Of a stretch of 32,000 nucleotides of DNA, positions 232-18,661 are shown piece by piece. How positions within the stretch are numbered: position 1 is the stretch's first letter; the number at the start of each line of letters is the position of its first letter. The notes under the pieces were generated by a model that saw nothing but the letters and a program-made list of their open reading frames with translations, had not been told where the DNA came from and did no database searches. The stretch is from contig NZ_CP010341.1 in NCBI RefSeq assembly GCF_000940845.1, forward strand, positions 1-32,000, read 5' to 3'. The translations under genes and the position numbers were made by a program. The stretch comes from Propionibacterium freudenreichii subsp. freudenreichii. GTDB taxonomy: Bacteria; Actinomycetota; Actinomycetes; Propionibacteriales; Propionibacteriaceae.

Positions 232-1707
232 ATGGACGGTGTGACTCGGGCTACAGACAGTGCTCAAGGGGCCCCCGACCTCCCTGATGCGTGGAAGCAC
301 GTGCTCTCTGACTTCGGTGGCCGCGACAAGGCCTACCTCAGGGGTGCCAAGGCCCTCACCGTGCATGAGTCCACCGTGATGATCGCGGTGCCCAATGACT
401 ACACGCGCGAGAACATCGAATCGAAGCTGCGCGACACCATCGAGTCGCGCCTGTCCGATGTGTACCACCGCGAGATGCGCCTGGCCATCACCGTCGAGCC
501 GAGCCTGGAGCTCGACCTGCGTCCCCCCGAACGCGACGAGGAGGCCGAGCGCGAGGTGGAGCCGGTGCAGTTCATCCCGCGCCAGGACGCCCCGGCGCCG
601 AGCCTGCGTGCGGTGGAGACCCCGCAACCGGCCAGCGCGGAATCCGCCGATGACACCGCGATCGCCGATGGACGCCTCAATCCGCGCTACACCTTCGACA
701 ACTTCGTGATCGGCTCGTCGAACCGCTTCGCCCATGCTGCCGCGGTGGCCGTGGCCGAGGCACCCGGCAAGGCGTACAACCCGCTGATGATCTATGGCGA
801 ATCAGGGCTGGGCAAGACGCACCTGCTGCATGCGCTGGGTCACTATGTGCGCAACTACTACTCCAATGTGCGCGTGAAGTACGTGAGCACCGAGGAGATG
901 ACCAATGAGTTCATCAACGCGGTGGGCGAGAACCGCACGGCCGAGTTCCGCCGCAAGTACCGCGACGACGTCGATGTGTTGCTGATCGACGACATCCAGT
1001 TCCTGGAGGGCAAGACCCAGACCCAGGAGGAGTTCTTCTACACGTTCAATGCGCTGCACAATGCCCAGCGCCAGATCGTGCTCACCTCCGACCGTCCGCC
1101 CAAGGCGCTGGAACAGCTCGAATCACGCCTGCGCAGCCGCTTCGAATGGGGGCTGATCACCGATATCCAGCCGCCCGACCCCGAGACGCGCATCGCGATC
1201 CTGCAGCGCAAGGCCGCCGCGGACAACCTTTCGGTGCCCCCGGGCGTGCTGGAGTTCATTGCCTCGAAGATCCAGACCAACATCCGTGAACTGGAGGGAG
1301 CGCTCATCCGCGTGACCGCCTTCGCCTCGCTCAATCGCGAGGAGGTGTCGCTGGCCGTGGCCGAGCAGGTGCTGCGCGACCTGATTCCCGACGGTGCCGA
1401 GGCCGATGTGACCGCCCCGACGATCATCCACGAGACCGCCAACTACTTCGGCGTGAGCGTCGACGACCTCATCGGCCCGAGCCGCAACCAGACCCTGGTG
1501 ATGGCCCGCCAGATCGCCATGTACCTGTGCCGCGAGCTCACCGACCTGTCGTTGCCGAAGATCGGCCAGGAATTCGGTGGCAAGGACCACACCACGGTGA
1601 TGCACGCCGATCGCAAGATCCGCAAGCTGATGAGTGAGCGCCGCAGCGTCTACAACCAGGTAACCGAGCTCACCAACCGCATCAAGCAGAATTCCGCGCG
1701 CCGCTAG
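232..1707 (+). CDS. dnaA: Chromosomal replication initiator protein DnaA
   Basis: ORF 28..1707. Has the AAA+ Walker A GESGLGKTHL, the RFEWGL and IRELEGAL blocks, and the C-terminal DNA-binding region (ARQIAMYLCRELT..LPKIGQEFGGKDHTTVMHA). Start moved to ATG 232, preceded by purine-rich GAGAGCGAAGG. GTG 241 (AAGGA 8 nt upstream) is equally possible. The ORF-track ATG 28 adds a non-conserved 68 aa. Confidence 0.93.
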   Translation: MDGVTRATDSAQGAPDLPDAWKHVLSDFGGRDKAYLRGAKALTVHESTVMIAVPNDYTRENIESKLRDTIESRLSDVYHREMRLAITVEPSLELDLRPPERDEEAEREVEPVQFIPRQDAPAPSLRAVETPQPASAESADDTAIADGRLNPRYTFDNFVIGSSNRFAHAAAVAVAEAPGKAYNPLMIYGESGLGKTHLLHALGHYVRNYYSNVRVKYVSTEEMTNEFINAVGENRTAEFRRKYRDDVDVLLIDDIQFLEGKTQTQEEFFYTFNALHNAQRQIVLTSDRPPKALEQLESRLRSRFEWGLITDIQPPDPETRIAILQRKAAADNLSVPPGVLEFIASKIQTNIRELEGALIRVTAFASLNREEVSLAVAEQVLRDLIPDGAEADVTAPTIIHETANYFGVSVDDLIGPSRNQTLVMARQIAMYLCRELTDLSLPKIGQEFGGKDHTTVMHADRKIRKLMSERRSVYNQVTELTNRIKQNSARR

Positions 1708-3151
1708 TCGCAGGCGAGATGAGGCCGCAGACGCCGACCCCCACCACGAGCACCCCCACGCACATCCACAACGCGGGCAGCAGCCCATCGACGAACGGCT
1801 GACCGGGACGATAGCTGCCGGCGCTGGTGAAGATGGCCGTGCAGACGGCGACCCCCAGCGTCACGCCCACCTGGCGCAGGGTGGAGTTCACGCCCGACGC
1901 CACTGCGTACTCGGGGCCCTGGCGACCCTGCAGCGCCGCCGTGGACAGCGGTGCGAAGCTCAGGCCCATGCCGACGCCACCGACGAACATCGGGGCGATC
2001 ACGGCGCCGTAGGTGACGCCCGGCGACAGCACGAGGGCCATCCACAGCAGCGCCACCGCCTCCAGGCCGAGTCCGATCATGAGCACCAGGCGCACGCCGA
2101 TGCGCTGCACGATCAATCCGACGATCGGCGCCATCACCATCGGCATCAGCGTCCAGGGCGCGGCGCGCCAGCCGGCACCCAGCGCCGAGTAGCCCATCGA
2201 CACCTCCAGGAACTGGCTCAGCAGGAAGATCGCGCCGAACACCCCGCCAGCGAACAGGAAGGTGGCGGCATTGGCGGCGCTGAACACCCGGTCGCGGAAC
2301 ATGGCAACCGGCAGGAAGGCCGAGCGCGCGCGACGCTCACGCATCAGGAAGCAGACGATGCACACCAGGGCCACGGCCAGTCCGAGCAGTGTGCGGGCGC
2401 TGGTCCAGCCGTGGTCGGGGGCCTCCACGATCGTCCACACGAGCATGAAGATCGACGCGATACCCAGGGCCATGCCAAGCAGGTCGATGCCCCGACGCTC
2501 CTGCGACCCACGCGCGGCGGCGGCACCCCGCAGGCTCACCAGGGCGAGCACGATGGCCACCACGCCGACGGGCACGTTGATCCAGAAGATCGCGCTCCAG
2601 TGCAGGCCCTGGATCACCGCGCCACCGACGATCGGACCCGCGGCAGTGCCGATGCCATTGACCCCGCCCCAGATGCCGATCGCCATCGGACGCTTCGCCG
2701 GCGGCACCATGTCGGCCAACAGGGCCAGCGACAGGGTGACGATCGCCGCCGCCCCGGCCCCCTCCACGGCACGCGCCGCGATGAGCATGGCCGATGAACC
2801 ACTCACCGCGGCCCAGGCGGAGGCGCCGGTGAACACGGTGATGCCGATGAGGAAGACGCGACGGCGTCCGAAGCGGTCACCCAACGCGGCCGCGGGCAAC
2901 AAGAGCGCCGCGAAAACGATCGTGTAGGCGTTCACGAACCACTGCAACTGCGTCACCGAGGCGTTCATCGCCTTCTGGATCACCGGCAACGCAAAGGTCA
3001 TCACCAGGTCGTCCAGGGCGGTCATCAGGGTGGGGAGGGCGGCGGCGATGATCACCATCGCCAGGCCGTGGCCGGCGCGCCCGCTTGGTCGGCGCGCATC
3101 GGACTCGGGTGCCTCGGGGGCGCCCGGGGACTGCCTCAGGATTATCGTCAT
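1682..3151 (-). CDS. MFS transporter, 14-TMS drug:H+ antiporter (EmrB/QacA, DHA2-like)
   Basis: 489 aa and hydrophobic throughout. MFS signature-like motifs (LGDRFGRRRVFLIG; GAGAAAIVTLSLALLADMVPPAKR). GGAG lies 8 nt upstream of ATG 3151. The 3' end overlaps the dnaA 3' end by 26 nt, convergently. Confidence 0.85.
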   Translation of the reverse strand: MTIILRQSPGAPEAPESDARRPSGRAGHGLAMVIIAAALPTLMTALDDLVMTFALPVIQKAMNASVTQLQWFVNAYTIVFAALLLPAAALGDRFGRRRVFLIGITVFTGASAWAAVSGSSAMLIAARAVEGAGAAAIVTLSLALLADMVPPAKRPMAIGIWGGVNGIGTAAGPIVGGAVIQGLHWSAIFWINVPVGVVAIVLALVSLRGAAAARGSQERRGIDLLGMALGIASIFMLVWTIVEAPDHGWTSARTLLGLAVALVCIVCFLMRERRARSAFLPVAMFRDRVFSAANAATFLFAGGVFGAIFLLSQFLEVSMGYSALGAGWRAAPWTLMPMVMAPIVGLIVQRIGVRLVLMIGLGLEAVALLWMALVLSPGVTYGAVIAPMFVGGVGMGLSFAPLSTAALQGRQGPEYAVASGVNSTLRQVGVTLGVAVCTAIFTSAGSYRPGQPFVDGLLPALWMCVGVLVVGVGVCGLISPATSGARNSA

Positions 3152-3164
3152 GTTGACTCCGTTC

Positions 3165-3216
3165 CACTAGATAGTGTTTCTATCTAACAAAACTAGATAG
3201 TATGTCTATCCAGTGG
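3165..3216. promoter_or_regulatory. Twin 19-bp palindromic operators in the divergent MFS/MerR intergenic region
   Basis: TAGATAG-TGTTT-CTATCTA (3168-3186) and TAGATAG-TATGT-CTATC (3194-3210), centres 26 bp apart. They are nested in an outer inverted repeat CCACTAGATAG...CTATCCAGTGG. The patch is AT-rich in a GC-rich genome. A candidate minus-strand promoter, TTGCAC (3225-3220) - 17 nt - TACTAT (3202-3197), overlaps palindrome 2. Confidence 0.55.
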
Positions 3217-3392
3217 CGGGTGCAAGATCGTCCCATGGCAGGCGCCGACGATGCGTTCGACACCGGGACGCCGAACCCCGGGCGCTGGGCCCCAACGCAA
3301 TGGGAACAGTGCAATGAACAACAGTGCAGCGAACAACGGGGCAACGGAGAACAGGGCGAAGGACGACAGGGACCTCAGGGAAGGGTGCATCG

Positions 3393-4010
3393 ATGCGCAT
3401 CTCGGAGCTGGCGCATGCGGCGAAGGTGCCGCTGCCAACCGTGAAGTACTACCAACGCGAGGGGCTGCTTCCCCCCGGACGGGCGGTCAACGCCCGCGAG
3501 TCGCAGTACGGCGAGGAGCACCTGTCCCGGCTGCGCGTGGTGCGCGTCCTGGTCACCGGGCTGGGCCTGACCATTGCCCAGGTGCGTCATGTGCTCGACG
3601 TGCTCGACGGCCCCCAGCGCGATCCCTACCAGGCGATGGGCGAGGCGACGAAGAACCTGCCGCTCACGGCACCGGCGTCGCAGACCAGCACCCCCGACGA
3701 TGACGTCGCCATGGTGCGCGCCCTGGGTTTCACCCACATCATCGATCCGCAGTTGGCCGGCCAGCTCGGCAATGCCCTGCGCTGGGCGGCCGAATCAGGC
3801 GTCAGCGTGACCCCGGAGCTCCTCGGCGCCTACCTGGACGCCACCCGGCAGATCGCCCGGGCCGACTTCGAGGTGATTCCCCGCACGAACTCCCGGGAGT
3901 CGGTCTCCTTCGCCGTGGTCGGCACCGTGGTGATGGAACCGGTGTTGCTCGCGCTGCGTCGACTGGCCCACGAGGAGCTTGCCCAGGAGATGGAGGACGA
4001 CGAGGGCTAG
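3393..4010 (+). CDS. MerR-family transcriptional regulator
   Basis: N-terminal MerR HTH: MRISELAHAAKVPLPTVKYYQREGLLPPGR...YGEEHLSRLRVVRVL. ATG 3393 is preceded by GGAAGGG. Divergent from the MFS gene. The stop overlaps the stop of the convergent glycosyltransferase (CTAG 4007-4010). Confidence 0.85.
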   Translation: MRISELAHAAKVPLPTVKYYQREGLLPPGRAVNARESQYGEEHLSRLRVVRVLVTGLGLTIAQVRHVLDVLDGPQRDPYQAMGEATKNLPLTAPASQTSTPDDDVAMVRALGFTHIIDPQLAGQLGNALRWAAESGVSVTPELLGAYLDATRQIARADFEVIPRTNSRESVSFAVVGTVVMEPVLLALRRLAHEELAQEMEDDEG

Positions 4011-5188
4011 CCGGGCCCGCGGCGCGACCGGCCACCCCGTGCGCGCTCGATCCCGTGCCGCTCGATGGCCTCGCGATAGCGCTCCACCAGGCTGCGGGTG
4101 GCCGCGGCCCAGTCGTGGCGCTCGGCCTCGGCCCGGGCCGCCACGGCCATGAGGGTACGCAGCCGACGCGCGGCGTCGTCGTCGCCCAGCAGGCGTCGGG
4201 CACGGTCGGCAAACCCGGCGCCGTCATGGGGCGTCACCAGAAAGCCATCGGTGCCGTCGTGGATCACATCGGGCAGCCCGCCCGCCGCGGCCGCGATCAC
4301 CGGCACGCCCGAGGCCATCGATTCCAGCGCCACCAGGCCGAGCGTCTCGGTGGTGGAGGGAAAGACGAAGGCGTCGGCGCTGGCATAGGCGGCAGCCAGC
4401 TCACTGCCCGCCAGGTAGCCGGTGAACACGGTGGGCGTACCCACGAAGGCCCGCTCCAGCTCGGCGCGGGCCGGGCCCGAACCCACCATCGCCAGGCGAT
4501 ATCCCTGCGCGCCCAGCACGCGCATCGGCTCCACCAGGTCGGCCAGGTCCTTCTCCCGACTCAGCCGCCCCACGTAGATCAGCAGCCGGGCATCGGGGTG
4601 GCCGTCGGTGAGCCGGGCGCGCATCGCGGCACTGGCCCGCCCGGGCCGGAACGTCTGCACGTCCACCGCCTTGGGCCACAGTTCCACGTGGCGCACGCCG
4701 CGACGCCGGGCCCGGCGCACCATCGTCGGCGAGGTGCACAGGTTCACCTGCGCCCGGTTGTGCAGGAACCGCGTCCACCCGACCATGGGACGCCGCGCCC
4801 ACCCGACGCCCAGCTTGCCCAGGTAGTCGGCCAGGTCGGTGTGATAGCTCGCCAACAGCGGCAGCCTGCGATGCACGGCCACCTCGACGCCGAACGCCGC
4901 CAGCGCCACGGGGTTGACCGCATGCACCACGTCGGGACGAAAGTGCACCATCTTGTCGGCGATGCTCGGTGTGGGCAGCCCCACCTTGATCTCGGGATAG
5001 ATGGGGCGCAGCGAGAAGGAGCGCACCCGCGACACCGGTTGACCCGCATGGCTGGCCGGTGGATTCCCGGGCGCGAAGACGAGCACCTCATGGCCGATCT
5101 CGCCGAGCTGCTCCAGGGTGTGGGTGAGCCGGGTGACCACCCCGTCGACCTTGGGCAGGAAGACCTCGGTGAACATGGCGACGCGCAT
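4007..5188 (-). CDS. GT4 glycosyltransferase, SQD2/SqdX-like (putative sulfoquinovosyl transferase)
   Basis: 393 aa. Matches recalled plant SQD2 block by block: SYHT...Y, FLH..A, LW.K.VD...F.P, VGR.S.EK, GP....LE..F.G.P.VFTG.L.G.EL..AYAS.D.FVFPS..ETLG.V.LE.M.SG.PV.AA.AGG.PD.I, DW.AAT. Lies 13 nt downstream of sqdB on the same strand. Confidence 0.8.
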   Translation of the reverse strand: MRVAMFTEVFLPKVDGVVTRLTHTLEQLGEIGHEVLVFAPGNPPASHAGQPVSRVRSFSLRPIYPEIKVGLPTPSIADKMVHFRPDVVHAVNPVALAAFGVEVAVHRRLPLLASYHTDLADYLGKLGVGWARRPMVGWTRFLHNRAQVNLCTSPTMVRRARRRGVRHVELWPKAVDVQTFRPGRASAAMRARLTDGHPDARLLIYVGRLSREKDLADLVEPMRVLGAQGYRLAMVGSGPARAELERAFVGTPTVFTGYLAGSELAAAYASADAFVFPSTTETLGLVALESMASGVPVIAAAAGGLPDVIHDGTDGFLVTPHDGAGFADRARRLLGDDDAARRLRTLMAVAARAEAERHDWAAATRSLVERYREAIERHGIERARGGRSRRGPG

Positions 5189-5201: not shown

Positions 5202-6449
5202 CTAGCCCGCGTCGATCGCGGTCACCGGATCGGTCGGCAAGCCGCCGGGGGAATCCTCGCGGTATGCGGCCGGGATACCGGGCTGGCGGTCCTTCGTCCA
5301 CAGGGAGCGGGCCGGGATGTGGGCGAAGTCCACCCGGTCGCGATATTTGGCGGCGGTCTGGTTGATCTCGCCGAGCAGCCCCTGGCTCAGCGTGGTGGGA
5401 TGCAGGCCCAGGTCGAGGAATGCCTCGGCGGTGACGTGCAGTTCGTTCTCGTCGGCCTCGTTGCGCGGATCGGGCACGTTCTCCACCACGGCCCCGGTGA
5501 GGCGTGCCACCATCGCGGCCAGGTCGCGCACCCGGTGGGTCTCGGTCATCTGGTTGAAGATCTTCACCCGCACGCCGCGCTCGGGAGGGTTGGCCAGCGC
5601 CAACTCGATACAGCGGGTCATGTCCTGGATGTGGATGAACGCCCGCGTCTGACCGCCGGTGCCGTGCACGGTGAGCGGATAGCCGACCGCGGCCTGCACC
5701 AGGAAGCGGTTCAACACGGTGCCGTAGTCGCCGTCGTAATCGAAGCGGTTCACCAGCCGCTCATCGAGCTGCGTCTCGGGGGTGGACGTGCCCCAGATGA
5801 TGCCCTGGTGCAGGTCGGTGATGCGCAGCGCGTCGTTCTTCGCGTAGTAGGCGAACAGGTCCTGGTCGAGCACCTTGGTCATGTGGTAGATCGAGCCGGG
5901 GCTGGTGGGATAGAGGATCTCGCGGTGCATCTCGCCGGCCTCGCCGTTCACGGCGACGTCGAGATATCCCTCGGGGATCTTCATGCCGGCGGTGCCGTAG
6001 CCGTAGACGCCCATCGTGCCCAGGTGCACCAGGTGGATGTCCAGGCCCGATTCGACGATGGCGCACAGCACATTGTCGGTGGCGTTGACGTTGTTGTTCA
6101 CCGTGTAGCGCTTGTGGCGCGATGACTTCATGGAATAGGGCGCCGAGCGCTGTTCGGCGAAGTGCACGATGGCGTCGGGACGCAGCGTGACCAGCAGGTC
6201 GAGCAGGCGCTCGTAGTCGGTGGCGACGTCGAGCTCCACCAGGTCGAGATGGCGTCCGGTGGCCTCGGCCCAGGCAGCACGGCGCTCGGCGTTCGAGCGG
6301 ATGGGGGTCAGTGATCCGGCCCCGAGTTCCTCGTCGATGCGGCGTCGGGAGAAGTTGTCGACGATGGTCACCTCGTTGCCCAGCGCCGACAGGTGCAGGC
6401 TTGCGGGCCACCCGCAGAAGCCGTCGCCACCGAGAACCACAATCTTCAT
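5202..6449 (-). CDS. sqdB: UDP-sulfoquinovose synthase (SQD1/SqdB family SDR)
   Basis: MKIVVLGGDGFCGWP..LHLS..G.EV.IVDN.SRR.ID.ELG..SLTPI, HFAEQRSAPYSM, NNV..T.N.L.AI, LGTMG.YG, GS.YH..K, TDL.QG...G, R.DYD...GT.LNRF.VQAAVG.PLTV.G.GGQTR are nearly collinear with recalled SQD1. Start chosen at ATG 6449 (AAGGA 8 nt upstream). ATG 6458 is the alternative. The ORF-track start 6602 adds unconserved residues. Confidence 0.85.
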   Translation of the reverse strand: MKIVVLGGDGFCGWPASLHLSALGNEVTIVDNFSRRRIDEELGAGSLTPIRSNAERRAAWAEATGRHLDLVELDVATDYERLLDLLVTLRPDAIVHFAEQRSAPYSMKSSRHKRYTVNNNVNATDNVLCAIVESGLDIHLVHLGTMGVYGYGTAGMKIPEGYLDVAVNGEAGEMHREILYPTSPGSIYHMTKVLDQDLFAYYAKNDALRITDLHQGIIWGTSTPETQLDERLVNRFDYDGDYGTVLNRFLVQAAVGYPLTVHGTGGQTRAFIHIQDMTRCIELALANPPERGVRVKIFNQMTETHRVRDLAAMVARLTGAVVENVPDPRNEADENELHVTAEAFLDLGLHPTTLSQGLLGEINQTAAKYRDRVDFAHIPARSLWTKDRQPGIPAAYREDSPGGLPTDPVTAIDAG

Positions 6450-6620
6450 CTGCGTCATCCTTTGCTCACGAGGTCGGGCCCCGGGGGTGCTTCGCGTGTG
6501 AACGCCGTCGCTCACCACATTAACCAGACGGCCCTGCCACACTTCGCCCACCTGCGGCCGGCCTGACGCGAACGGACGGCCGCAGCCATCAGATTTCACC
6601 AAGTTTTCATGCGGTTCTCC

Positions 6621-6868
6621 CTGTCCGCAGACCTGTGGATAACTCGCCGTTCATGGGGAGATCATGTGGACGCCCATCCCCAACCCTCCGCCGCTGTCCA
6701 CAGGCGTCCACAGGCGCATGGCGTGTCGTCAACAGCGCATCAACAGGCAGATCGGGCCGAATCACGCCTGAAACGGCAGTTGTCCACCGGATCCACACGT
6801 GTGAAGAGGGGTACTGAATGGACATACAAAGAAGAAATTCCAAGTCTGCTGCACCCATCTGTGGACGG
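6621..6868. promoter_or_regulatory. Cluster of eight DnaA-box-like 9-mers (candidate oriC or DnaA-binding region)
   Basis: Read directly. CTGTCCGCA 6621-6629 (7/9). TGTGGATAA 6634-6642 (rc TTATCCACA, 9/9). TGTGGACGC 6665-6673 (7/9). CTGTCCACA 6694-6702 (8/9). GCGTCCACA 6704-6712 (7/9). TTGTCCACC 6780-6788 (8/9). GGATCCACA 6789-6797 (7/9). TGTGGACGG 6860-6868 (7/9). Scored against TT(A/G)TCCACA. An AT-rich tract (cagatttcaccaagttttcat, 6588-6608, 14/21 A+T) adjoins the cluster. Confidence 0.6.
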
Positions 6869-7864
6869 CCCCACGAGCCACGGGAAGACGGCTCGGCAGG
6901 GCCCCGAAGGTGCGCTAACGTGACCGTCGTGCCCCCACAAGACAGTCCACGAGCACGTCGTGCCGCAGCCGACGATCCGGGTGTATCAGACGGCGTTCCC
7001 GAAGCGACGTCCGCCGCCCTGCATGCCGACGAGCAGCCCCCGCTGGGCGAGGTCCCCGTACCGCGGGATGACAACTCGGAGATCGCTGCGTACACCAGGG
7101 ACCTGACCAAGGTCTACGGCAGCGGCGACGCCGAGGTGGTGGCGCTCGACCATGTTGACGTCGACTTCTTCAAGGCACGCTTCACCGCCGTGATGGGCCC
7201 CTCGGGGTCGGGCAAGTCAACGCTGATGCACTGCGTGGCCGGCCTGGACGCACCCACCTCAGGCGAGGTGGTGATCGGCGACACCAACATCGCCACCCTC
7301 AAGGACTCCAGGCTCACCGAACTGCGCCGTGACCGCATCGGCTTCGTGTTCCAGTCATTCAACCTGATTCCCACGCTCACCGCGCTGGAGAACATCGAGT
7401 TGCCGATGGCGATCGCCGGGCGCAAGCCCGACCCGGAATGGCTCGACCACGTGATCGACATCGTGGGGCTGCGCAGCCGCCTCAAGCACAAGCCGTCGCA
7501 GCTTTCCGGCGGCCAGCAGCAGCGCGTGGCGTGTGCCCGCGCCCTGGTGGGCAAGCCCGACATCATCTTCGCCGACGAACCCACCGGCAACCTCGACTCG
7601 GCGGCCTCCGCCGAGATCCTGGGCTTCCTGGCCTCCAGCGTCACCGACCTGGGCCAGACCATCGTGATGGTCACCCACGACCCCACCGCGGCCGCCTACG
7701 CCAATCGGGCGTTGTTCCTGGCCGACGGGCGCATCGTCGCCGACATGGACGATCCCGACCGCGACAAGGTGCTCGCCCGCATGGTCGAGCTGAGCTCCCC
7801 GGTTGACGCGTCCGCACCCGGTGCGTCGACGCAGGCTGCCGGTCCTTCGACAGTTCAGGGCTGA
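6818..7864 (+). CDS. ABC transporter ATP-binding protein (MacB/LolD/FtsE-like) with a disordered N-terminal extension
   Basis: Walker [11 protein letters not shown]-loop, signature [15 protein letters not shown], Walker [14 protein letters not shown]-loop VMVTHD. No in-frame ATG or GTG lies close to the ATPase core, so an N-terminal extension of at least 50 aa is real. Candidate starts are ATG 6818 (GAGGGG 8 nt upstream), GTG 6920 and GTG 6929. Confidence 0.88.
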
Positions 7865-7865
7865 C

Positions 7866-10424
7866 ATGTGGAAGGCGTCGTGGAAGTCCCTGATGGGACA
7901 CAAGGTCCGGCTGCTGTTGTCCGCCCTGTCGGTGGTGTTGGGCATCGCCTTCCTGTCGGGTGCGCTCACCTTCACCGGCATGCTGTCGAACACCTTCGCC
8001 GCGATCACCCAGGGCACGATCGCCGATGTGTCGGTGGGGGTGAAGGGCACCCAGAGCATTGACTCGGTGGTGACCCCGGATTACACGAAGAACCACCTGA
8101 CCAACGCCGATATCGACCGCATCCGCGGCGTGGCGGGTGTGGAGTCAGCCTCGGGGCAGATCACCCAGATGAACACGGTCTACCTGTTGGGCACCAACAA
8201 CAAGGTGGTCGGCATGGCCGGGCCACCGTCGATCGCCAGCAATTTCACCACCGAGCCGGCAATGAATCACAAGCCCGGCATCGAGGTGCGCAGCGGGCAG
8301 GCACCCACCACCGACGACGAGGTGGCGGTGGATCCCAGCTCGTTGGAGCGCAGTGGCTATCACCTCGGTGACACGGTGAAACTGCTTGCCAATGGACAGA
8401 CCATCACCAAGAAGCTGGTGGGCACGGCTGCCTGGGGTTCGGGTGGCAGTGCCGGTGCCGCCTATGTCTTCTTCGACGACGTCACCGCTTCCCAGCTGTT
8501 CATGGGTGGCGCACCGGGCTATATGCAGGCGGCCGTCACGGTGAAGGCTGGCTCCGATGTCGACGCCGTGACCAAGGCTGTCGCTGCCGCGGTGCCGGAT
8601 GGGTTCGAGGCGGTTCCGGGACATCAGGTGGCCGACCAGTTGAAGACCGCGCTCGACCAGGCGATGGACTTCGTCAACATCTTCCTGGGGGTCTTCGCGG
8701 CGATATCCCTGGTGGTGGCCTGCTTCCTCATTGTGAACACCTTCTCAATGCTGGTGGCTCAACGCAGTCGTGAGCTGGCGCTGTACCGGGCACTGGGCGC
8801 GTCCCGCGGTCAGGTGGCACGGTCGGTGATCTTCGAGGCCCTGCTGACCGGTCTGGTCGGCGGGGTCATCGGGGTTGGGCTGGGTGCCTTTCTGGCTTAT
8901 GGAATCGGAGAAGCCGTGACGGCGGCTGGCATGGATATGGTCTCTTCGGTGCCCATGCCGTCGTGGCAGAACGCATTGTTGTCGGTGGTGATCGCCGTGG
9001 TGGTCACGGTGGTCGCCGCCTGGTTCCCCTCGCGGCGCGCGAGCCGGGTGCCGCCGATCGCGGCAATGACTGGTGAGGTGACGTCGGGCGAGGGGGGTCT
9101 GGGGCGTCGCACGCTGGTCGGCACGATCATGCTGGTGGTCGGCATCGCGGGCATCTGGTCGGGTGTCACCCTGAAGGTCAGCAAGAATATGTGGCTGCTG
9201 GGTGGAGGTGCCTTCCTGGTGCTCATCGCGGTCACCTTGATGAGCCCGGTGATCGGGCGTCCGCTCATCTGGGTGATGGGACGGGCCTACCGGTTGTTGT
9301 TCGGTGAGACGGGAAAGCTTGCCGAGCTGAATGCGATCCGACTGCCCCGACGCACCGCCGCCACCGCGTCGGCGTTGATGATCGGCATCACATTGGTGTC
9401 AACCCTGTCGATCCTGGGCGCCTCCGCGAGCACATCCACCGAGCACTCCGTGCGGGACAGCCTTCGTGGCGACTTTGTCATATCGAGCCTCAATTATGGG
9501 CCGCTGCCTGCCAGCCTCTTCGACGAGGTGAAATCGACGCAGGGCGTCGCCTCGGTGCATCGGGCACGGACGGCGGCGACCACAATCAACGGCGCGCGCG
9601 CCCGGGTCATCGGCTATCCGACCAGCGATTTCAACAAGATCCAGGCGCAGTCGATGGTCACCGGCACCATGGGCGATGCGCTGGGCGAGGTGATCGTCTC
9701 GCAGGCCTACGCCGACGAGCAGAAGCTGCAGGTGGGCGGCACGCTCGAGTCGGTGGACGCCGCCACCATGGCGCCGCTGAAGCTCACCGTCACCGGCATC
9801 TTCACCACGCCCAAGGGAGGTGGCTTCGGATCGATCAACGCGAACCTTGCCACCGTGGCAGCCCTGGGCAACCGTGACCGCGACAGCCAACTGTCGGTGG
9901 ACGCCGCACCGGGCGCGTCGCACCAGTCGGTGCAGGACGCCCTCGATTCGGCCACCAGCGACAACCCGCTGATCGTGGTGCAGAACCAGCAGGAATATGC
10001 CAAGGCGCAGAGCGCCCAGATCGACCAGATGCTCACCACTGTGTACGCCCTGCTGGGGTTGGCCGTGGTGATCGCGGTGCTGGGCATCGTGAACACGCTG
10101 GCCCTGTCGGTGGTGGAACGTACCCGCGAGATCGGGTTACTGCGCGCCGTGGGCATGAAGCGTGGCCAGCTGAGGCTGATGATCACCCTGGAATCGGTGA
10201 TCATCGCCGTGCTTGGTGCCGTGCTCGGCCTGGTGATGGGCCTGGGCTTCGGCGTGGCCCTGCAGCACGTGCTGGTTGACCAGGGACTGTCGATCCTGTC
10301 GATCCCGTGGGGCCGGTTGGGAATCTTCCTGGCCGTGTCGGTGGTGGTGGGCGTGCTGGCCGCAGTGGTGCCCGCCCGACGCGCCACCAAGCTGAACATG
10401 CTCGACGCCATTTCCAGCGAATAG
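7866..10424 (+). CDS. ABC transporter permease with two FtsX/MacB-type domains
   Basis: 852 aa. Two FtsX-like modules (…IVNTFSMLVAQRSRELALYRALGASRGQV… and …IVNTLALSVVERTREIGLLRAVGMKRGQL…), each preceded by a large extracytoplasmic loop. ATG 7866 is 1 nt after the ATPase stop (TGAcATG). Confidence 0.88.
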   Translation: MWKASWKSLMGHKVRLLLSALSVVLGIAFLSGALTFTGMLSNTFAAITQGTIADVSVGVKGTQSIDSVVTPDYTKNHLTNADIDRIRGVAGVESASGQITQMNTVYLLGTNNKVVGMAGPPSIASNFTTEPAMNHKPGIEVRSGQAPTTDDEVAVDPSSLERSGYHLGDTVKLLANGQTITKKLVGTAAWGSGGSAGAAYVFFDDVTASQLFMGGAPGYMQAAVTVKAGSDVDAVTKAVAAAVPDGFEAVPGHQVADQLKTALDQAMDFVNIFLGVFAAISLVVACFLIVNTFSMLVAQRSRELALYRALGASRGQVARSVIFEALLTGLVGGVIGVGLGAFLAYGIGEAVTAAGMDMVSSVPMPSWQNALLSVVIAVVVTVVAAWFPSRRASRVPPIAAMTGEVTSGEGGLGRRTLVGTIMLVVGIAGIWSGVTLKVSKNMWLLGGGAFLVLIAVTLMSPVIGRPLIWVMGRAYRLLFGETGKLAELNAIRLPRRTAATASALMIGITLVSTLSILGASASTSTEHSVRDSLRGDFVISSLNYGPLPASLFDEVKSTQGVASVHRARTAATTINGARARVIGYPTSDFNKIQAQSMVTGTMGDALGEVIVSQAYADEQKLQVGGTLESVDAATMAPLKLTVTGIFTTPKGGGFGSINANLATVAALGNRDRDSQLSVDAAPGASHQSVQDALDSATSDNPLIVVQNQQEYAKAQSAQIDQMLTTVYALLGLAVVIAVLGIVNTLALSVVERTREIGLLRAVGMKRGQLRLMITLESVIIAVLGAVLGLVMGLGFGVALQHVLVDQGLSILSIPWGRLGIFLAVSVVVGVLAAVVPARRATKLNMLDAISSE

Positions 10425-11091
10425 GGATATTGCGACGCCGTGCTGCGATATTCCCCGGAGTTATCGCTTGCGGATATCGATTATTGGCCTCGTGGGGCCC
10501 GCCCGGTGACGAGCAGGTGAATTCCCTGCCGGACGCCCATCCCTGACGCCCAGCTCCGCGCGCCGGCGGGTGGCTCGGTGTCCCGCCCGGTGGTGCAACC
10601 CGGTGGCGCGACCCATGTCCCCTGCCGATACCCCGGATGGCATGGCACGTCGCCCGAGGCGGGGCTTCGGGGTGTGGGGGCTCGCAGGGTGGGGGCTGGC
10701 CCGTCTCGTCGGATGAACGCGCCCCGGACGGCGTCGTGGCTGGTCAGGGCCGTGTGGCCGCAACGACGGCCCTGCACGCGGTCGCGTCCCGGGCCCGATG
10801 ACGCCTGGTGAGGGACGCCATGGTCGGTGTGCTCGTCCCGGCGGTTTCCCATGCCGGCAGTCCCCCATGCCGGTGGTGAGTTCGCGGTCCTGACTGGTGG
10901 GCTGGCCGGGGCGTCCACCGGAAGTGGGCCCAACCCGGCGGAATCTGCTTTCGCGACGCTGTTGCCGCAACTATCGCGTCGACAAACCGCGCTCGTGGAT
11001 TGGCGCGACATCCGCCGACTGCGACGCCGTGATCGGCCCGTGATGGCGCGCGCTCAGTGGAATCGGGTCGCCTGGGGAAGCTGCGCACACC

Positions 11092-11335
11092 GGTGGACAA
11101 ACTGTTGATAACTTCGCTGATCGGAGCCGATGTGCGGTGTTTCCTGCTTGTCGGGCTGTGGTGTTGTGGCGGTTCGCGTGCCGGGGCGCCACCGACGGAG
11201 TGACGCTTTTCCCGCGTGAAAGTGCGATCGTTGAAGCATTTACGGCCTCGCCGGTCGGTGCCTGCGGGTGCTCCGCGGGCAGCCGATGGTTACCCAGAGA
11301 GTTATCCACAGGGCGGTGGGTTGATTGGTGGATAA
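11092..11335. promoter_or_regulatory. Four DnaA-box-like sites in the long dnaN-upstream non-coding region
   Basis: GGTGGACAA 11092-11100 (rc TTGTCCACC, 8/9). TGTTGATAA 11103-11111 (rc TTATCAACA, 8/9). TTATCCACA 11302-11310 (9/9). GGTGGATAA 11327-11335 (rc TTATCCACC, 8/9). A direct repeat GGCGGTGGGTT at 11312 and 11343 flanks the last box. Confidence 0.5.
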
Positions 11336-11835
11336 GTCGACAGGCGGTGGGTTCGGCGTCGCCAGCGCGGCGCAGGGCTTGGGGGTGACGATGCGTCACG
11401 ATCGGGCCCGCTTGTCAACCGACACGAAGGTGACCACTGCCCCCACCGTGACGGGGCCGGCACAGCACAGATCTTGCGGCCGAATGCCCCCTGTGGCGCA
11501 TGATTTCCCGGGATGGGTACGTCGCCGATCACGACGCGCCAAGGGCTCGGGGCGAGGTCGGTCTGCGATGCGCCGGTCGATCCCCCCGTCCGGTGTTGCG
11601 GCCGTGCCGTCCCATGTCGGCCGGGACGCCGCAGGGCGCCGTGGCACGCCCTCGCCGCGCCCCGCTATTGGGGCACTCCGCTGTTGGGGCTGCCACCGAA
11701 GGAACCGGTGTCCTGAGGCGGAACCCAGGTCGCCGTCGAGCCCCTGCGGCCATGACGCAGGAAATCCGTGGGTTCGCTGCCCTACGCGCTCGATTTCTTC
11801 GGCCCGGCGGCGGTCACCGCAGGCGGCGTCAGAGT

Positions 11836-11859
11836 GACGTCGGGCGGGACGTCGGGCGG
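11836..11859. repeat. Perfect 12-bp tandem duplication (GACGTCGGGCGG x2)
   Basis: Read directly at 11836-11847 and 11848-11859. Followed by GGCGGTCGG-like partial copies. Confidence 0.8.
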
Positions 11860-11917
11860 TCGGCAAGGCGGTCGGAATGGGTGAACAACGCGTGAACACA
11901 TTGCGGGGTGCTTTCAG

Positions 11918-11992
11918 GGAGCGCCATAAGGGAGCGCGATAAGGCAGCGCCATAGGTGATCTCGCAGAGATAAGGGATTGGCACAAGGGATT
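11918..11992. repeat. Three head-to-tail 13-mers plus 13-bp-spaced AAGGGATT repeats about 310 bp upstream of dnaN
   Basis: GGAGCGCCATAAG (11918-11930), GGAGCGCGATAAG (11931-11943), GCAGCGCCATAGG (11944-11956). Then ATCTC-GCA-GAGAT mini-palindrome. AAGGGATT occurs at 11972-11979 and 11985-11992. This is locally the least GC-rich part of the intergenic region. Confidence 0.7.
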
Positions 11993-12299
11993 TCGTGCCG
12001 GAACCGCTATTTTCTTCACCCGGTCCTCGTCCGCGCGGGATATCGCCGCCATCCCGCGGGATTGACGGGGCAACGCCGCGTCCACACGACCATTCCATGG
12101 GTGCATCGGCGTCCGCTCGCCGCTATTGCCGGCCGATGGGGTGCCCGCAGCTCTGTGATGTCGCGGGGTCATGCGTCAACCCTCAACCGTCACTTGCCAC
12201 CGCTGAACAGAACGTCGGAGCAGGCCGATATGATGCAAGCGCCGCGGTAGGCGGCTTGCCGAGTGGTCGAGAAAGACAGCACAACGGAGCGAGGAATCA

Positions 12300-13460
12300 G
12301 TGAAGATCACAGTCGAGCGCGATGTCATGGCGGAGGCTGTTGCCTGGGTGGCACGCAGCCTGCCCAATCGCCCGAGCGTTCCGATCCTTGCCGGCCTGCT
12401 CATGAGGGCCACGGGGAGCCAGCTCGTGCTGTCGAGCTTCGACTATGAGACCAGTGCACGCATCACCATTGACGCGCAGGTCGATGAGGAGGGCGAGGCC
12501 CTCGTCTCGGGGCGCCTGCTGTCAGAGATCGCCCGCAGCCTGCCCAATCGTCCGGCCCGCTTCACCGCCAACTCCAACCACGTGGAACTGGTGTGTGGCT
12601 CGGCCCGCTTCACCCTGCAGATGCTGCCGGTGGAGGACTACCCGCAGCTGCCCGAGATGCCCGCCGAGAGCGGCACCGTCCCCAGCGACGAGTTCACCCG
12701 TTCCGTGGCCCAGGTGGTGGTGGCCGCCGGTCGCGACGAGCTGCTGCCCGTGTTCACCGGCGTGCGCATCGAGATCAACGACGATCGCCTCTCGCTGCTG
12801 GCCACCGACCGCTACCGCATGGCGTTGAAGGAACTCACCTGGAATCCGGCCACCACGCAGGCCGAGAGCGCCGCCCTGGTGCCCGCCCGCGTGCTGTCGG
12901 AATCGGCCCGTTCCATGGGTGGTGGCGAGGCCGTTGCCCTGGCATTGTCCAATGGCATCGAGGGCGAGGGGCTCATCGGATTGTCCGGCGAGGGCGCCGG
13001 CGGACGCCGCGAACTCACCACCCGGCTGCTCGACGGCGAATTCCCCAAAGTGCGCCACCTGATGGACATCAAGCCCAATGTCACCGTGCGCGTGAAGACC
13101 GAGGAGGTGCTCGAGTCGGTCAAGCGCGTCTCCCTGGTCGCCGAGCGCAACACCTCGGTGCGCATGGTCATCGAGGACGACCGCATCGCACTCGACGCCG
13201 CCACCGGCGACCAGGCGCAGGCCACCGAGGCCATTGAGGCCCAGGTGAACAATGTGGCCGGCGGCGAGATGGCCGTATCGGCCGTGGGGTTCAACCCCCG
13301 CTACCTGACCGATGCGCTCTCGGCGCTTGATACGCCCTATGTGCAGTTCTCGTTCACGGCCCCCGGCAAGCCCTGCCTGGTGCAGGGACTGCCCGACGTC
13401 GATGGCGAGCCCGAGGCCGACTACAAGCATGTGATCATGCTGATGCGCCTGCCCGGCTGA
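12300..13460 (+). CDS. dnaN: DNA polymerase III beta sliding clamp
   Basis: 386 aa with a typical DnaN N-terminus (MKITVERDVMAEAVAWVARSLP.RPSVPILAGLLM...LVLSSFDYETSARI) and three-domain length. GTG 12300 is preceded by GGAGCGAGGAA. Position is upstream of recF. Confidence 0.92.
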   Translation: MKITVERDVMAEAVAWVARSLPNRPSVPILAGLLMRATGSQLVLSSFDYETSARITIDAQVDEEGEALVSGRLLSEIARSLPNRPARFTANSNHVELVCGSARFTLQMLPVEDYPQLPEMPAESGTVPSDEFTRSVAQVVVAAGRDELLPVFTGVRIEINDDRLSLLATDRYRMALKELTWNPATTQAESAALVPARVLSESARSMGGGEAVALALSNGIEGEGLIGLSGEGAGGRRELTTRLLDGEFPKVRHLMDIKPNVTVRVKTEEVLESVKRVSLVAERNTSVRMVIEDDRIALDAATGDQAQATEAIEAQVNNVAGGEMAVSAVGFNPRYLTDALSALDTPYVQFSFTAPGKPCLVQGLPDVDGEPEADYKHVIMLMRLPG

Positions 13461-13533
13461 CCGATCGACCGCGGAGCGGGGCTGGCCTAGGCTGGCACCG
13501 TCGCATTGATGTCGTTCGGGAGGGGTGCAGCCG

Positions 13534-14835
13534 ATGTTCGTCGAGCACCTCGAGCTGAAGGACTTTCGTTCCTACGAGGCCGCCAAGCTCGATATCGGCC
13601 CGGGTGTGTCGGTGTTCGTGGGGCCCAACGGCCACGGCAAGACCAACCTGGTGGAGGCCGTCGAATACCTGTCGACGCTGTCGAGCCACCGGGTGTCGGC
13701 CGATGCGCCATTGATCCGCGCCGGCACCAGCCAGGCGATCGTCAGGGCGCTGGTGGTGGCGGGTCGCGACGACCCCCGCAAGCTGCTGCTGGAGCTCGAG
13801 ATCAACGCCGGACGCGCCAACCATGCGCGCATCAACCGGGCGCCGGTGCGGCGGATGCGCGATTTCATCGGGGCGCTGCGCACGGTGGTGTTCAGCCCCG
13901 AGGACCTGGCGATGGTGAAGGGCGATCCCACCGACCGGCGTGCCTTCCTCGATGCCCTGGTGATCACCCGGTGGCCGCGGCTGGCCGGCGTGAAATCTGA
14001 CTACGACCGGGTGCTGCGGCAACGTAATACCCTGCTGAAGACGCTGGCGCGACGCTCGTCGCGCGTCGATGGGGGCGACGTGGCCACCCTCGACGTGTGG
14101 AACGAGCGGCTGGCCCAGTTCGGCGCTGAGCTGTTGGCGGCGCGGCTGGCAACCCTGTCCGACCTGATGCCCTATGCGCGGGCGAGCTATGCGGCGATCG
14201 CGCCGGTGAACAACCGGGTGGACGCCCGCTACAAGTCGTCGTTGGGTGGGCTGTCCGAGCTGCTGGGCTATGCCACCGACGGTGCACCCGGTGAGCTTCC
14301 GGAGGCCGCGGACACCGACGACGAAGTGCGCACCCCGGCGCCCGGGCCCGACCAGCTGGCGGTGCTCATGATGGACGCCATGGCTGCGCGGCGCGGCGAC
14401 GAACTCGCCCGCGGCGTCACCCTGGTGGGTCCCCACCGCGATGATGTGACCCTGACGATCGGCACCCTGCCGGCGAAGGGCTATGCCAGCCACGGTGAGA
14501 GCTGGTCGCTCGCCCTGGCGCTGCGGTTGGGATCACTCGACATGCTGCGCGCCGACGACGTGGAGCCGGTGCTGGTGCTCGACGATGTGTTCGCCGAGCT
14601 CGACGTGACGCGACGTGATCGCCTTGCCGACGCCGTCGCGAAGGCCGAGCAGGTGCTGGTGACTGCCGCGGTCGGCTCCGACGTGCCCGGGCAGCTGAAT
14701 GGGCAGCGCTTCGACGTCGACCTGCGCGGATCGGCGCACGCCGGGCATGAGGAGAGCGCCACCGGGCCGCGTGTTTCGATCGTGTCCCCAGCCTTGTCCA
14801 CAGGCTCTGTCCACAGGTCTGTGGACAATGACTGA
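13534..14835 (+). CDS. recF: DNA replication/repair protein RecF (with about 45-aa C-terminal read-through tail)
   Basis: MFVEHLELKDFRSYE, Walker A GPNGHGKTNL, signature-like HGESWSLALALRLGS, Walker B LVLDDVFAELD. ATG 13534 lies 8 nt after GGGAGGGG. The last ~45 codons (…RGSAHAGHEESATGPRVSIVSPALSTGSVHRSVDND) lie beyond the conserved RecF end and run through the DnaA-box trio. Confidence 0.9.
   Translation: MFVEHLELKDFRSYEAAKLDIGPGVSVFVGPNGHGKTNLVEAVEYLSTLSSHRVSADAPLIRAGTSQAIVRALVVAGRDDPRKLLLELEINAGRANHARINRAPVRRMRDFIGALRTVVFSPEDLAMVKGDPTDRRAFLDALVITRWPRLAGVKSDYDRVLRQRNTLLKTLARRSSRVDGGDVATLDVWNERLAQFGAELLAARLATLSDLMPYARASYAAIAPVNNRVDARYKSSLGGLSELLGYATDGAPGELPEAADTDDEVRTPAPGPDQLAVLMMDAMAARRGDELARGVTLVGPHRDDVTLTIGTLPAKGYASHGESWSLALALRLGSLDMLRADDVEPVLVLDDVFAELDVTRRDRLADAVAKAEQVLVTAAVGSDVPGQLNGQRFDVDLRGSAHAGHEESATGPRVSIVSPALSTGSVHRSVDND
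14794..14828. promoter_or_regulatory. Three DnaA boxes at 13-bp spacing overlapping the recF stop and dciA start
   Basis: TTGTCCACA 14794-14802 (9/9 to the actinobacterial consensus). CTGTCCACA 14807-14815 (8/9). TGTGGACAA 14820-14828 (inverted, 9/9). The last base of box 3 is the A of the dciA ATG. Confidence 0.65.
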
Positions 14836-15610
14836 GCGCGAACGGCACCCCGGTGAGGCGCCGATGCCCTGGGGCGATGGGCTGCCGCCGTGGCAGCGCG
14901 ACCAGGAAGCCCCGCCGGAGCCTCCCGATCCGACCCCGCCGGATCCGATCCTCCCCGATTCGACCGAACCCGTTTCCACAGGGCCCGATCCCGCGGAAGA
15001 TGATCCGACGAGCTCTGGCTCGTCGAACGGCGAGCGCTGGGACCCATCGGGGGGCGACCCATCGGCAGGCGGGCCGGATGAGGGGGCGGTTCCGGACGAC
15101 CACGATCCCGAGGGCTTCGAGGTGGCCACCAGCGTGGCCCACCAGCTGTCGGGGATGTTGCCCCCGGCCAGGTTGGGCCCGCGCAAGAAGGGCAGAAAGC
15201 GCCGTCGGCGTGCCCGACTGTTCGACGAGGAGCGATCCGGTGCCGGCCCCGATGTGCGCGACCCGCAGGCGGTCGGATCGGCGATGGAGAAGCTCGTCAA
15301 CGAGCGTGGCTGGCGCACCCAGTTGGGCCTGCGCCTGATCGTCGGGCGCTGGGCCGAGTTGGTGGGGCCGACGAATGCCGCCCATTCGCGTCCCGAGAGC
15401 TATCGCGACCGGGTGTTGGTGGTGCGGGCCGAGTCGAGCACCTGGGCGTCGGCATTGCGGCTGCTGGCGCCCCAGCTGGTGGCGGAGCTGAATCGTCGCC
15501 TGGGCGATGGTTCGGTGATCCGGGTGGACGTGCGTGGCCCCGCCGCGCCCAGTTGGCGCCATGGGCGTCGAACGGTGAATGGACGCGGTCCCCGCGACAC
15601 CTATGGGTGA
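14828..15610 (+). CDS. dciA: DUF721 / DciA-like protein (Rv0004-type, putative replicative-helicase operator) with a Pro/Asp-rich N-terminal half
   Basis: The C-terminal DUF721-like block (VGSAMEKLVNERGWRTQLGLRLIVGRWAELVG...HSRPESYRDRVLVVRAESSTWASALRLLAPQLVAELNRRLG.GSVIRVDV) and the conserved position after recF support the call. ATG 14828 overlaps the recF stop (ATGACTGA). Confidence 0.8.
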   Translation: MTERERHPGEAPMPWGDGLPPWQRDQEAPPEPPDPTPPDPILPDSTEPVSTGPDPAEDDPTSSGSSNGERWDPSGGDPSAGGPDEGAVPDDHDPEGFEVATSVAHQLSGMLPPARLGPRKKGRKRRRRARLFDEERSGAGPDVRDPQAVGSAMEKLVNERGWRTQLGLRLIVGRWAELVGPTNAAHSRPESYRDRVLVVRAESSTWASALRLLAPQLVAELNRRLGDGSVIRVDVRGPAAPSWRHGRRTVNGRGPRDTYG

Positions 15611-15663
15611 GTGATGCGGTGGGCGAGTGACGCCGGGACGAGTGGGCAGTGGCTGAGTGACGC
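15609..15663. repeat. Four copies of a 15-16-bp periodic GAGTGAYGC repeat immediately after the dciA stop
   Basis: GAGTGATGC 15609, GAGTGACGC 15625, GAGTGGGC 15640, GAGTGACGC 15655. Each is preceded by GG(G/C)(T/C). Confidence 0.6.
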
Positions 15664-18282: not shown

Positions 18283-18661
18283 ACGTTCTCGGATGTGGCC
18301 CCGTCGAATCAGTTCTACAAGGAGATCGAGTGGGCCGCGAGCACCGCTATCACCACTGGTTGGCCTGATGGCACGTTCCGTCCGACGACTCCGGTGGCGC
18401 GTGATGCGATGGCTGCTTTCTTGTATCGGCGTGCCGGGTCTCCTGCTTTCCTGGCTCCTGGTGTTCCGTCGTTCACTGATGTGGGTGCGGGGAACATGTT
18501 CTATCAGCAGATCGAGTGGATGAAGTCGACTGGTGTGTCCACGGGTTGGGTTGATGGGACGTATCGTCCATTGGACGCTACGAACCGTGACGCGATGGCA
18601 GCATTCCTGCACCGCTACAGCAACATCGGGAAGTAACCACCCGAACAAACAAACCAGCTGA

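Follow-up and report, generated by a model that had tools for sequence, protein, structure and literature searches.

In Actinobacteria the chromosomal replication origin, oriC, is located in the spacer between dnaA and dnaN. The oriC of E. coli lies about 40 kb from dnaA and has another architecture. We analysed the first 32,000 nt of contig NZ_CP010341.1 of Propionibacterium freudenreichii subsp. freudenreichii (the window), in which dnaA and dnaN are 10.6 kb apart, a spacer length that an earlier note on this DNA had given and with which the gene coordinates agree. That note had drawn attention to a cluster of DnaA boxes at 6621-6868, inside the spacer, as a possible functional origin. In the genome paper of P. 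freudenreichii CIRM-BIA1, oriC was placed by Ori-Finder at 10,426-12,300 (PMC2909200). These coordinates correspond to the gap between a permease gene and dnaN in the window, about 4 kb from the cluster; in the literature we found no experimental work on the P. freudenreichii origin, only this prediction. Our data indicate, with a probability that we put at roughly 0.8, that 6621-6868 is the oriC of P. freudenreichii, or at least its part for DnaA assembly and unwinding, and that the published interval probably covers only an accessory DnaA-box module. Preference for the internal site over the dnaN-adjacent region is supported by the orthology of a conserved core and by its layout of tandem boxes, spacer, triplets and AT-rich segment.

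In Bacillus subtilis, origin unwinding involves the basal unwinding system (BUS), which comprises DnaA-boxes 6/7, DnaA-trios and an AT-rich region in incC. According to the published rule, a BUS has two co-oriented boxes, a first trio no more than 16 nt (typically 13 nt) from the better box, and at least three trios with a central adenine and the consensus 3'-GAT-5', searched for as (.A.){3,} (PMC8287927). The supplement of that paper writes the trio strand 3' to 5', giving the S. coelicolor site as AATAGGTGC CATAGGTGT CCGG GATGATGATGAC, and this notation set the strand and register in which we read the triplets described below. Pelliciari et al. 2023 reported, in vitro and in vivo, that cytosine can replace the central adenine; cytosine, like adenine, has an exocyclic amine (PMC10721633).

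The relatives were collected by a scan with DnaN, keeping one genome per species, which gave 80 Propionibacteriaceae loci (labelled L001 etc., L001 being the closest relative of the window). Most of these loci have a classical short dnaA-dnaN spacer of about 350-1400 bp. The spacers of the genomes without insertion have a conserved segment of about 70-100 bp in common, and the same segment is found upstream of an ATP-binding cassette (ABC) ATPase gene in L019 and L027. By nhmmer, a core of about 105 bp was detected in about 70 of the 80 loci, with one copy per locus and always on the dnaN strand. For 57 of 69 loci, the distance from the end of the core to dnaN downstream is 55-273 bp (median 114); the other 12 have a stretch of 2.5-9.2 kb inserted between the two. 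The full profile matched the window at 6767-6867 (E = 5e-17). A profile built from eight genomes without the ABC insertion had its sole match at 6769-6867 (E = 4.5e-9) in a 40-kb composite, which consists of the window and 8.3 kb upstream of dnaA from another P. freudenreichii assembly (overlap of the window with the assembly contigs, 0 mismatches over 13,151 bp). Independently of the profile, blastn matched 6779-6828 of the window to the dnaA-dnaN spacer of L033. A synteny comparison with related genomes, which the earlier note had suggested, thus came out in favour of the internal site, as relatives with a short spacer carry the matching core just upstream of dnaN.

The anatomy of the core was worked out from column statistics over 63 cores. 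The family core begins with abutting TTGTCCACA and GGATCCACA boxes, followed by a 4-nt spacer (G-C-N-G), five triplets, an AT-rich stretch (ACATACATCTCCA..TCTTCAAAGTC), about 15 variable GC-rich nt and an inverted box, TGTGGACAA. The tandem-box columns (18-35 of the profile) are nearly invariant, and the inverted-box columns (101-107, TGTGGAC) are conserved. The corresponding elements of the window are given in Table 1; the first triplet follows the upstream box (6780-6788) after 13 nt. The segment 6811-6850, a candidate DNA unwinding element, aligns with the conserved AT-rich segment of the family and sits between the tandem and the inverted boxes. In silico, the 30-mer at 6811-6840 ranks third in the 32 kb for low stability (top 0.1%), and no other 30-mer of its gap is less stable.

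The five triplets of the family, read on the bottom strand, fit 3'-R[A/C]T-5' in 57, 54, 32, 47 and 39 of the 63 cores at positions 1 to 5, respectively, with the consensus ACT ACT GCT ACT ACT. This pattern is frame-specific, as about 0 cores show it in the two shifted frames. The centre of the triplet is A or C in 63/63, 59/63, 37/63, 61/62 and 61/62 cores. Canonical central-A DnaA-trios were rejected, because the strict trio rule (central A, at least three consecutive) is failed by both the family consensus and the window, and the A-or-C rule alone fits. Trios starting from the right inverted box were likewise rejected, no run of NAN triplets being present within 16 nt of that box. The reported substitution of cytosine for adenine leads us to read the core as a putative unwinding module with C-centred trios, which would be BUS-like with variant trios and not a strict member of the class. 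For P. acnes KPA171202 the BUS supplement lists another, low-scoring site (AATAGGGGA .. GACCAAAAG, score 4; PMC8287927). The tandem-box core of Cutibacterium avidum and about 60 relatives misfits the published central-A search rule, which probably explains why the published search did not pick it.

Compared with actinobacterial origins of the Streptomyces, Mycobacterium and Corynebacterium type, the site has the same TTGTCCACA-type box cluster and a core like that in the dnaA-dnaN spacer of its relatives, and the tandem boxes, 4-nt spacer and triplet layout recur in S. coelicolor and Corynebacterium glutamicum (PMC8287927 supplement). It differs from them in the distance of the core from dnaA and dnaN (4.9 and 5.4 kb), with unrelated genes on both sides, and in the Propionibacteriaceae triplets, which are mostly 3'-ACT-5' and not 3'-GAT-5'. 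With the B. subtilis BUS it shares the two co-oriented boxes, the 13-nt triplet offset, and at least five triplets, which lie on the strand whose 5' to 3' direction points to the boxes and which an AT-rich region follows. However, the centre base in the family is C more often than A, so that (.A.){3,} would miss the core, and the family core is conserved beyond the triplets and closed by an inverted box.

The layout suggests how initiation might proceed. DnaA would bind the abutting boxes at 6780-6797, aided by the left array at 6621-6745, and would then oligomerise rightwards on the bottom strand over the triplets at 6802-6816. The AT-rich segment at 6811-6850, bounded by the inverted box at 6860-6868, would be opened as the last of these steps.

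DnaA boxes were scored on both strands as 9-mers with no more than 2 mismatches to TT[A/G]TCCACA. The cluster of eight boxes with one perfect 9-mer noticed previously is present, and by this criterion 6621-6868 holds 10 sites, the densest cluster of the window and of the 40-kb composite. The suggestion that its density is above background also held up: in 300 dinucleotide-preserving shuffles of the window the maximum number of boxes per 250 bp averaged 4.3 and never exceeded 6, and the intergenic region 6453-6919 contains 11 boxes against 1.9 +/- 1.3 expected. Within the left array, the plus-strand boxes at 6694 and 6704 make a 10-bp tandem of two GTCCACAGGC units. The order of the left array, one or more minus-strand boxes followed by two plus-strand boxes, is also seen left of the core in L001, L005, L007 and L003, and these four loci have a (T)CATCAACA motif pair at the place equivalent to the degenerate pair at 6726-6745, which we regard as candidate low-affinity DnaA sites. 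In the canonical relatives a comparable array of minus-strand boxes is located about 130-160 bp left of the core.

Two further elements had been linked to the cluster. The hairpin at 6552-6585 does exist, with a stem of 9+2 bp (-14.6 kcal/mol, z = -3.4), and so does the A+T tract at 6588-6608 (14 of 21 nt). Neither is among the conserved elements, since both fall outside the family core and outside the part that aligns with L001, and the relevant AT-rich element is 6811-6850. The hairpin and tract are probably not part of the origin; the sqdB-like gene may have them in its 5' region.

Table 1. Coordinates of the elements of the proposed origin, the second box module and the neighbouring genes in the window
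Feature	Position	Strand	Remarks
Conserved origin core	6767..6867	+	Matches the dnaA-dnaN oriC core of Propionibacteriaceae
Left DnaA-box array	6621..6712		Five boxes
Box CTGTCCGCA	6621	+	Left array
Box TTATCCACA	6634-6642	-	Left array; perfect
Box GCGTCCACA	6665	-	Left array
Box CTGTCCACA	6694	+	Left array
Box GCGTCCACA	6704	+	Left array
Weak overlapping box pair	6724 / 6726	- / +	
Degenerate TCAACA-type box pair	TCGTCAACA 6726-6734, GCATCAACA 6737-6745	+	Read from sequence; candidate low-affinity sites
Abutting co-oriented boxes	6780..6797	+	Proposed anchor of unwinding module
Box TTGTCCACC	6780-6788	+	First of tandem; ends in C
Box GGATCCACA	6789-6797	+	Second of tandem
Spacer CGTG, 4 nt	6798-6801		
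Five triplets	6802-6816	bottom	3'-ACT TCT CCC CAT GAC-5'; candidate DnaA-trios, C or A centre
AT-rich least stable segment GTACTGAATGGACATACAAAGAAGAAATTCCAAGTCTGCT	6811..6850		Candidate DNA unwinding element
Box CCGTCCACA	6860-6868	-	Inverted, right end of core
GC-rich hairpin and 67% A+T tract	6552..6608		Hairpin 6552-6585, tract 6588-6608
Second DnaA-box module	11092..11335		Four boxes, inside the published oriC gap
Tandem boxes TTGTCCACC and TTATCAACA	11092, 11103 (11092-11111)	- / -	
Inverted box pair TTATCCACA and TTATCCACC	11302, 11327	+ / -	
-10-like element GATATGATGC (TATGAT)	12227-12236	+	66 bp upstream of dnaN
dnaA	28-1707	+	Open reading frame (ORF) of 559 aa; called start 232 (491 aa), so start differs between ORF and gene call
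DHA2 major facilitator superfamily (MFS) efflux gene	1682-3151	-	
MerR regulator gene	3324-4010	+	
GT4 glycosyltransferase gene	4007-5188	-	
UDP-sulfoquinovose-synthase-like epimerase (sqdB-like) gene	5202-6449	-	Called start 6449
ABC ATPase gene	6929-7864, or 6818-7864 in longer gene call	+	MacB/FtsX-type exporter operon
Duplicated FtsX/MacB permease gene	7803-10424	+	Exporter operon (6929..10424)
Non-coding stretch, 1.9 kb	10425-12299		Without credible gene
dnaN	12300-13460	+	
recF	13525-14835		Then gyrB and gyrA further on

The end of dnaA is 4.9 kb and the start of dnaN 5.4 kb away from the cluster, and the lack of adjacency to either gene is explained by insertions that can still be traced in the relatives. 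All seven Propionibacterium loci have an ABC operon upstream of dnaN, as do two of the four Luteococcus loci and one Propionibacteriaceae metagenome-assembled genome (MAG; L051), and most other Propionibacteriaceae are without it at this locus. It lies between dnaA and dnaN in 8 of the 10 operon loci, i.e. in those where dnaA is within the sequence covered. Every operon genome whose sequence reaches far enough has the core upstream of the operon, which is accordingly found between core and dnaN in L001, L003, L005, L006, L007 and L009, in Luteococcus L019 and L027, and in L051; in L002 and L004 the operon is upstream of dnaN and the available sequence ends short of any core. Other loci have other genes between core and dnaN: a DEAD-box helicase gene in L063 (7428-9956), thiD/thiE/thiM in L031 (7470-9969), and in L028 (790-10001) a block of 9 kb that includes genes for threonine synthase and IucA/IucC siderophore genes.

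The dnaA side of the core has also received genes. In L001, L005, L007 and the window, GT4 and sqdB-like genes separate dnaA from the core; the window additionally has the MFS and MerR genes there, and a TetR gene occupies this place in Luteococcus (L017 8724-9431) and several others. In L003, L006 and L009 the core is 262-283 bp from dnaA. Since the core keeps its place beside differing inserted genes, some of them on the opposite strand (e.g. in L063 and L031), it is unlikely to serve the ABC or sqdB genes as their promoter or operator.

A -10-like element was found 40-100 bp upstream of dnaN, also in genomes with inserted genes; of 81 sequences (the 80 loci and the window), 76 match GATATGAT with no more than 2 mismatches in the 160 bp that precede dnaN. 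Comparison of the Luteococcus junctions showed that GATATGAT stays with dnaN despite the insertion, and GATATGATGC in the window is probably the dnaN promoter. With the core on the dnaA side and GATATGAT on that of dnaN, the points of insertion lay to the right of the core and ahead of the dnaN promoter. The separate location of the two also ruled out the core as the dnaN promoter.

From these comparisons the ancestral order, still present in most Propionibacteriaceae, would be dnaA, left box array, core, about 55-270 bp containing the dnaN promoter, and dnaN. In the lineage of the window, the ABC exporter operon and 1.9 kb of fast-evolving non-coding DNA would have been inserted between the right box of the core and the dnaN promoter, and four further genes between dnaA and the origin. 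Insertions on both sides would have left the origin about 5 kb from dnaA and about 5 kb from dnaN. As judged from these gene orders, the dnaA-oriC-dnaN block is one that has been broken repeatedly in Propionibacteriaceae; adjacency to dnaA and dnaN is a usual, not a defining, feature of oriC. The E. coli origin, between gidA and mioC, is similarly apart from dnaA and dnaN and flanked by unrelated genes, but here the distance is about 5 kb per side and arose by insertions that are still traceable.

The strand-switch argument of the earlier note was borne out in part. The cluster does lie in a divergent gap, with the sqdB-like gene on the minus strand to its left and the ABC ATPase gene on the plus strand to its right, and there is a local switch at 6.5-6.9 kb. 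However, rpmH, rnpA, yidD, yidC, jag, gidB, parA and parB, upstream of dnaA, are all directed away from dnaA, and the conserved switch therefore lies at rpmH|dnaA. The cumulative GC skew of the 40-kb composite has its minimum at 4.9-7.7 kb, in a noisy curve that gives weak support. A rival cluster upstream of dnaA was rejected, as the rpmH-dnaA gap, taken from the other assembly of the species, has 2 weak boxes and no core match. In the 40 kb around dnaA no other candidate with an unwinding module was found.

Several observations weigh against placing the origin at 6621-6868. Excursions of the GC skew similar in size to that at 4.9-7.7 kb occur elsewhere in the 40 kb. The core of the window scores below those of its relatives, the first of its tandem boxes ends in C, and, with an A or C centre in 5/5 triplets, the full R[A/C]T pattern is present in only 1/5, so it is a degenerate copy. 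One gene call starts the ABC ATPase at 6818, within the proposed unwinding element; this start varies among assemblies, giving 348 aa (ATG 6818) or 311 aa (GTG 6929), and the N-terminal 50-85 residues show no conservation in relatives. Boxes no more than one mismatch away from TTATCCACA, the E. coli consensus, are more numerous in the published gap than in the main cluster, and the module of the gap at 11092-11335 is conserved in L001 (at 9140, 9340 and 9365), where the surrounding gap does not align.

The second module bears on the possibility that the origin is bipartite, with halves at 6.6-6.9 kb and 11.09-11.34 kb that are both needed, the DnaA bound at each of them interacting by looping as in H. 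pylori or B. subtilis, and with the ABC operon lying between them. H. pylori (oriC1-dnaA-oriC2) and B. subtilis (incAB-dnaA-incC) likewise have two gene-separated clusters with the unwinding element in one of them, although there the separator is dnaA and here it would be the ABC operon. The window and L001 have 11092-11335 in common although the gap around it does not align, and comparable tandem minus-strand boxes (TGTGCACAAC..CCTGTGGACAAGTGGAAAAG) directly follow the permease in L002, L005 and L007 and occur in L003 close to dnaN, so that the module is under selection in the genus; these second modules resemble the left array of Luteococcus origins. Against this, Luteococcus L019 and L027, which have the same ABC insertion, contain no box within one mismatch between permease and dnaN, so that the arrangement as such does not require the module. 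Moreover, no box module separates core and dnaN in the canonical relatives, the module-to-core distance ranges from about 3.6 to 7.5 kb, and by stability scan and sequence reading no AT-rich unstable segment or triplet run adjoins 11092-11335. We therefore consider a bipartite origin rather unlikely. A fuller version, in which the origin of the genus is split, with the complete unwinding module upstream of the ABC operon and the conserved auxiliary box module downstream, the operon being nested within the origin and its transcription, from a start at or beside the unwinding element, being coupled to initiation, and in which Propionibacteriaceae have natural C-centred trios (3'-ACT-5'), appears to us equally doubtful.

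It would be very unlikely, in our estimation, that the published assignment is right, with replication starting in 10,426-12,300 and the cluster at 6.6-6.9 kb being a decaying relic or a DnaA-titrating site. The gap was picked by Ori-Finder (PMC2909200), abuts dnaN and is an unusually long non-coding stretch; it has one perfect TTATCCACA, two sites one mismatch off and one site one mismatch from TTGTCCACA, and the degenerate state of the window core would suit a relic. Nevertheless, the profile of the family core found no match in the gap, which also lacks the tandem-box, spacer and triplet layout and any markedly unstable segment (its least stable 30-mer is at -38.0 kcal/mol, against -34.5 at 6811). 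As a BUS it was rejected, since no triplet run and no AT-rich segment comes after the boxes at 11092-11111 or after the one at 11302. Beyond the box module and the dnaN leader, which it has in common with L001, the gap shows no conservation of DNA or protein even in this closest relative. The equivalent gap is only 237 bp in L005 and 216 bp in Luteococcus. Decay of the core in the lineage is opposed by L001, in which the core is well preserved (AAT ACT GCT ACT ACT). We think that Ori-Finder probably chose the gap for its adjacency to dnaN and its larger number of sites within one mismatch of the E. coli consensus. The earlier statement that there are fewer boxes near dnaN than at 6.6-6.9 kb was correct, with four good ones at 11092-11335.

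The idea that the cluster is primarily an operator through which DnaA controls the sqdB-like and ABC genes on either side, or a titration site like datA, without a role in initiation, is scarcely credible: it could draw on the position of the cluster in a divergent promoter gap, on the gene call that starts the ATPase within the core, and on DnaA being a known transcription factor, box clusters outside oriC regulating neighbouring genes in B. subtilis according to one report (PMC3245932), but the same core occurs in about 60 genomes with neither gene adjoining, the sqdB-like gene is not beside it in L003, L006, L009, L019, L027 and L051, it persists next to inserted genes of the opposite strand, a scan of 6300-7100 detected no sigma-70-like promoter and no terminator-like site, and the 40 kb around dnaA would otherwise be left without a candidate unwinding module.

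With the origin at 6621-6868, the module at 11092-11335 looks like an accessory DnaA-binding site (for dnaN regulation, titration or as an auxiliary origin half) and not like an initiation site. Small groups of boxes without an unwinding element are typical of titration or regulatory clusters, such as datA and those of Streptomyces. The groups at 11092-11335 and 14794-14828, the secondary box clusters of the window, are like E. coli datA, the DnaA-box clusters of B. subtilis and those near oriC in Streptomyces in being small, conserved and free of an unwinding element, and the cluster at 6.6-6.9 kb does not fit this class because it carries an unwinding module. The second of these groups consists of three boxes in the last 40 nt of recF, TTGTCCACA (+), CTGTCCACA (+) and TTGTCCACA (-), and is possibly an accessory DnaA-box cluster. 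At least two boxes (no more than 1 mismatch) within 120 bp of the recF stop were found in 6 of 20 scorable loci, about 8 times the locus background, namely in Propionibacterium L001, L002, L005 and L007, in Luteococcus L017 and in L021.

The published gap itself was examined for decayed genes, and this explanation was rejected, as tblastx against the equivalent regions of seven Propionibacterium loci returned only the box module and the dnaN leader. A 258-aa ORF called in it had no Pfam match. About 350 bp upstream of dnaN there are three tandem AGGGAGCGCCATA-like 13-mers (11916-11954) with a weaker fourth near 11970 (88% matches, Tandem Repeats Finder score 64). They are not conserved in L001 and, being GC-rich, are not an unwinding element; they may be binding sites for some protein. 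In P. acidifaciens, P. ruminifibrarum, P. australiense and a MAG (L003 7949-9985; L004, L006, L009) the stretch between permease and dnaN is conserved over about 2.2 kb and holds a 678-aa minus-strand ORF, with no Pfam match.

Elsewhere in the window, Rfam and tRNA scans gave tRNA-Ile as the sole match. The least stable 30-40-mer of the window is at 3170-3209 (GC 0.27), where the MFS and MerR genes diverge; with its inverted repeat CTATCTA..N..TAGATAG it resembles an operator and promoter of the MerR type. At 15500-18300 the GC content falls to 0.55, against about 0.67, in an island between the gene after recF and gyrB that is probably foreign DNA. It contains an 814-aa ORF (15830-18274, +) with a single weak SLH-domain match, overlapped by an IS30-like transposase gene (HTH_38 and rve; 17183-18223, -).

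The sole published origin assignment of this industrial species would thus be corrected: 10,426-12,300 is probably accessory, and the conserved unwinding module would be at 6.77-6.87 kb, which is of relevance to origin-based vectors, replication profiling and genome-coordinate conventions. Adjacency rules can mislead, and at this locus a choice of intergenic region by its E. coli-type boxes and its position beside dnaA or dnaN fails. In the family, the interval between core and dnaN promoter took up genes repeatedly, among them the ABC exporter, the DEAD-box helicase, the thiamine genes and the 9-kb block. The alignment of about 60 cores also offers a natural test of the DnaA-trio model, because the triplet centres vary almost only between A and C, as recent cryo-EM and base-substitution work on DnaA-trio capture predicts. 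If natural C-centred trios are real, they would confirm from evolution the amine-capture rule, hitherto based on engineered B. subtilis origins.

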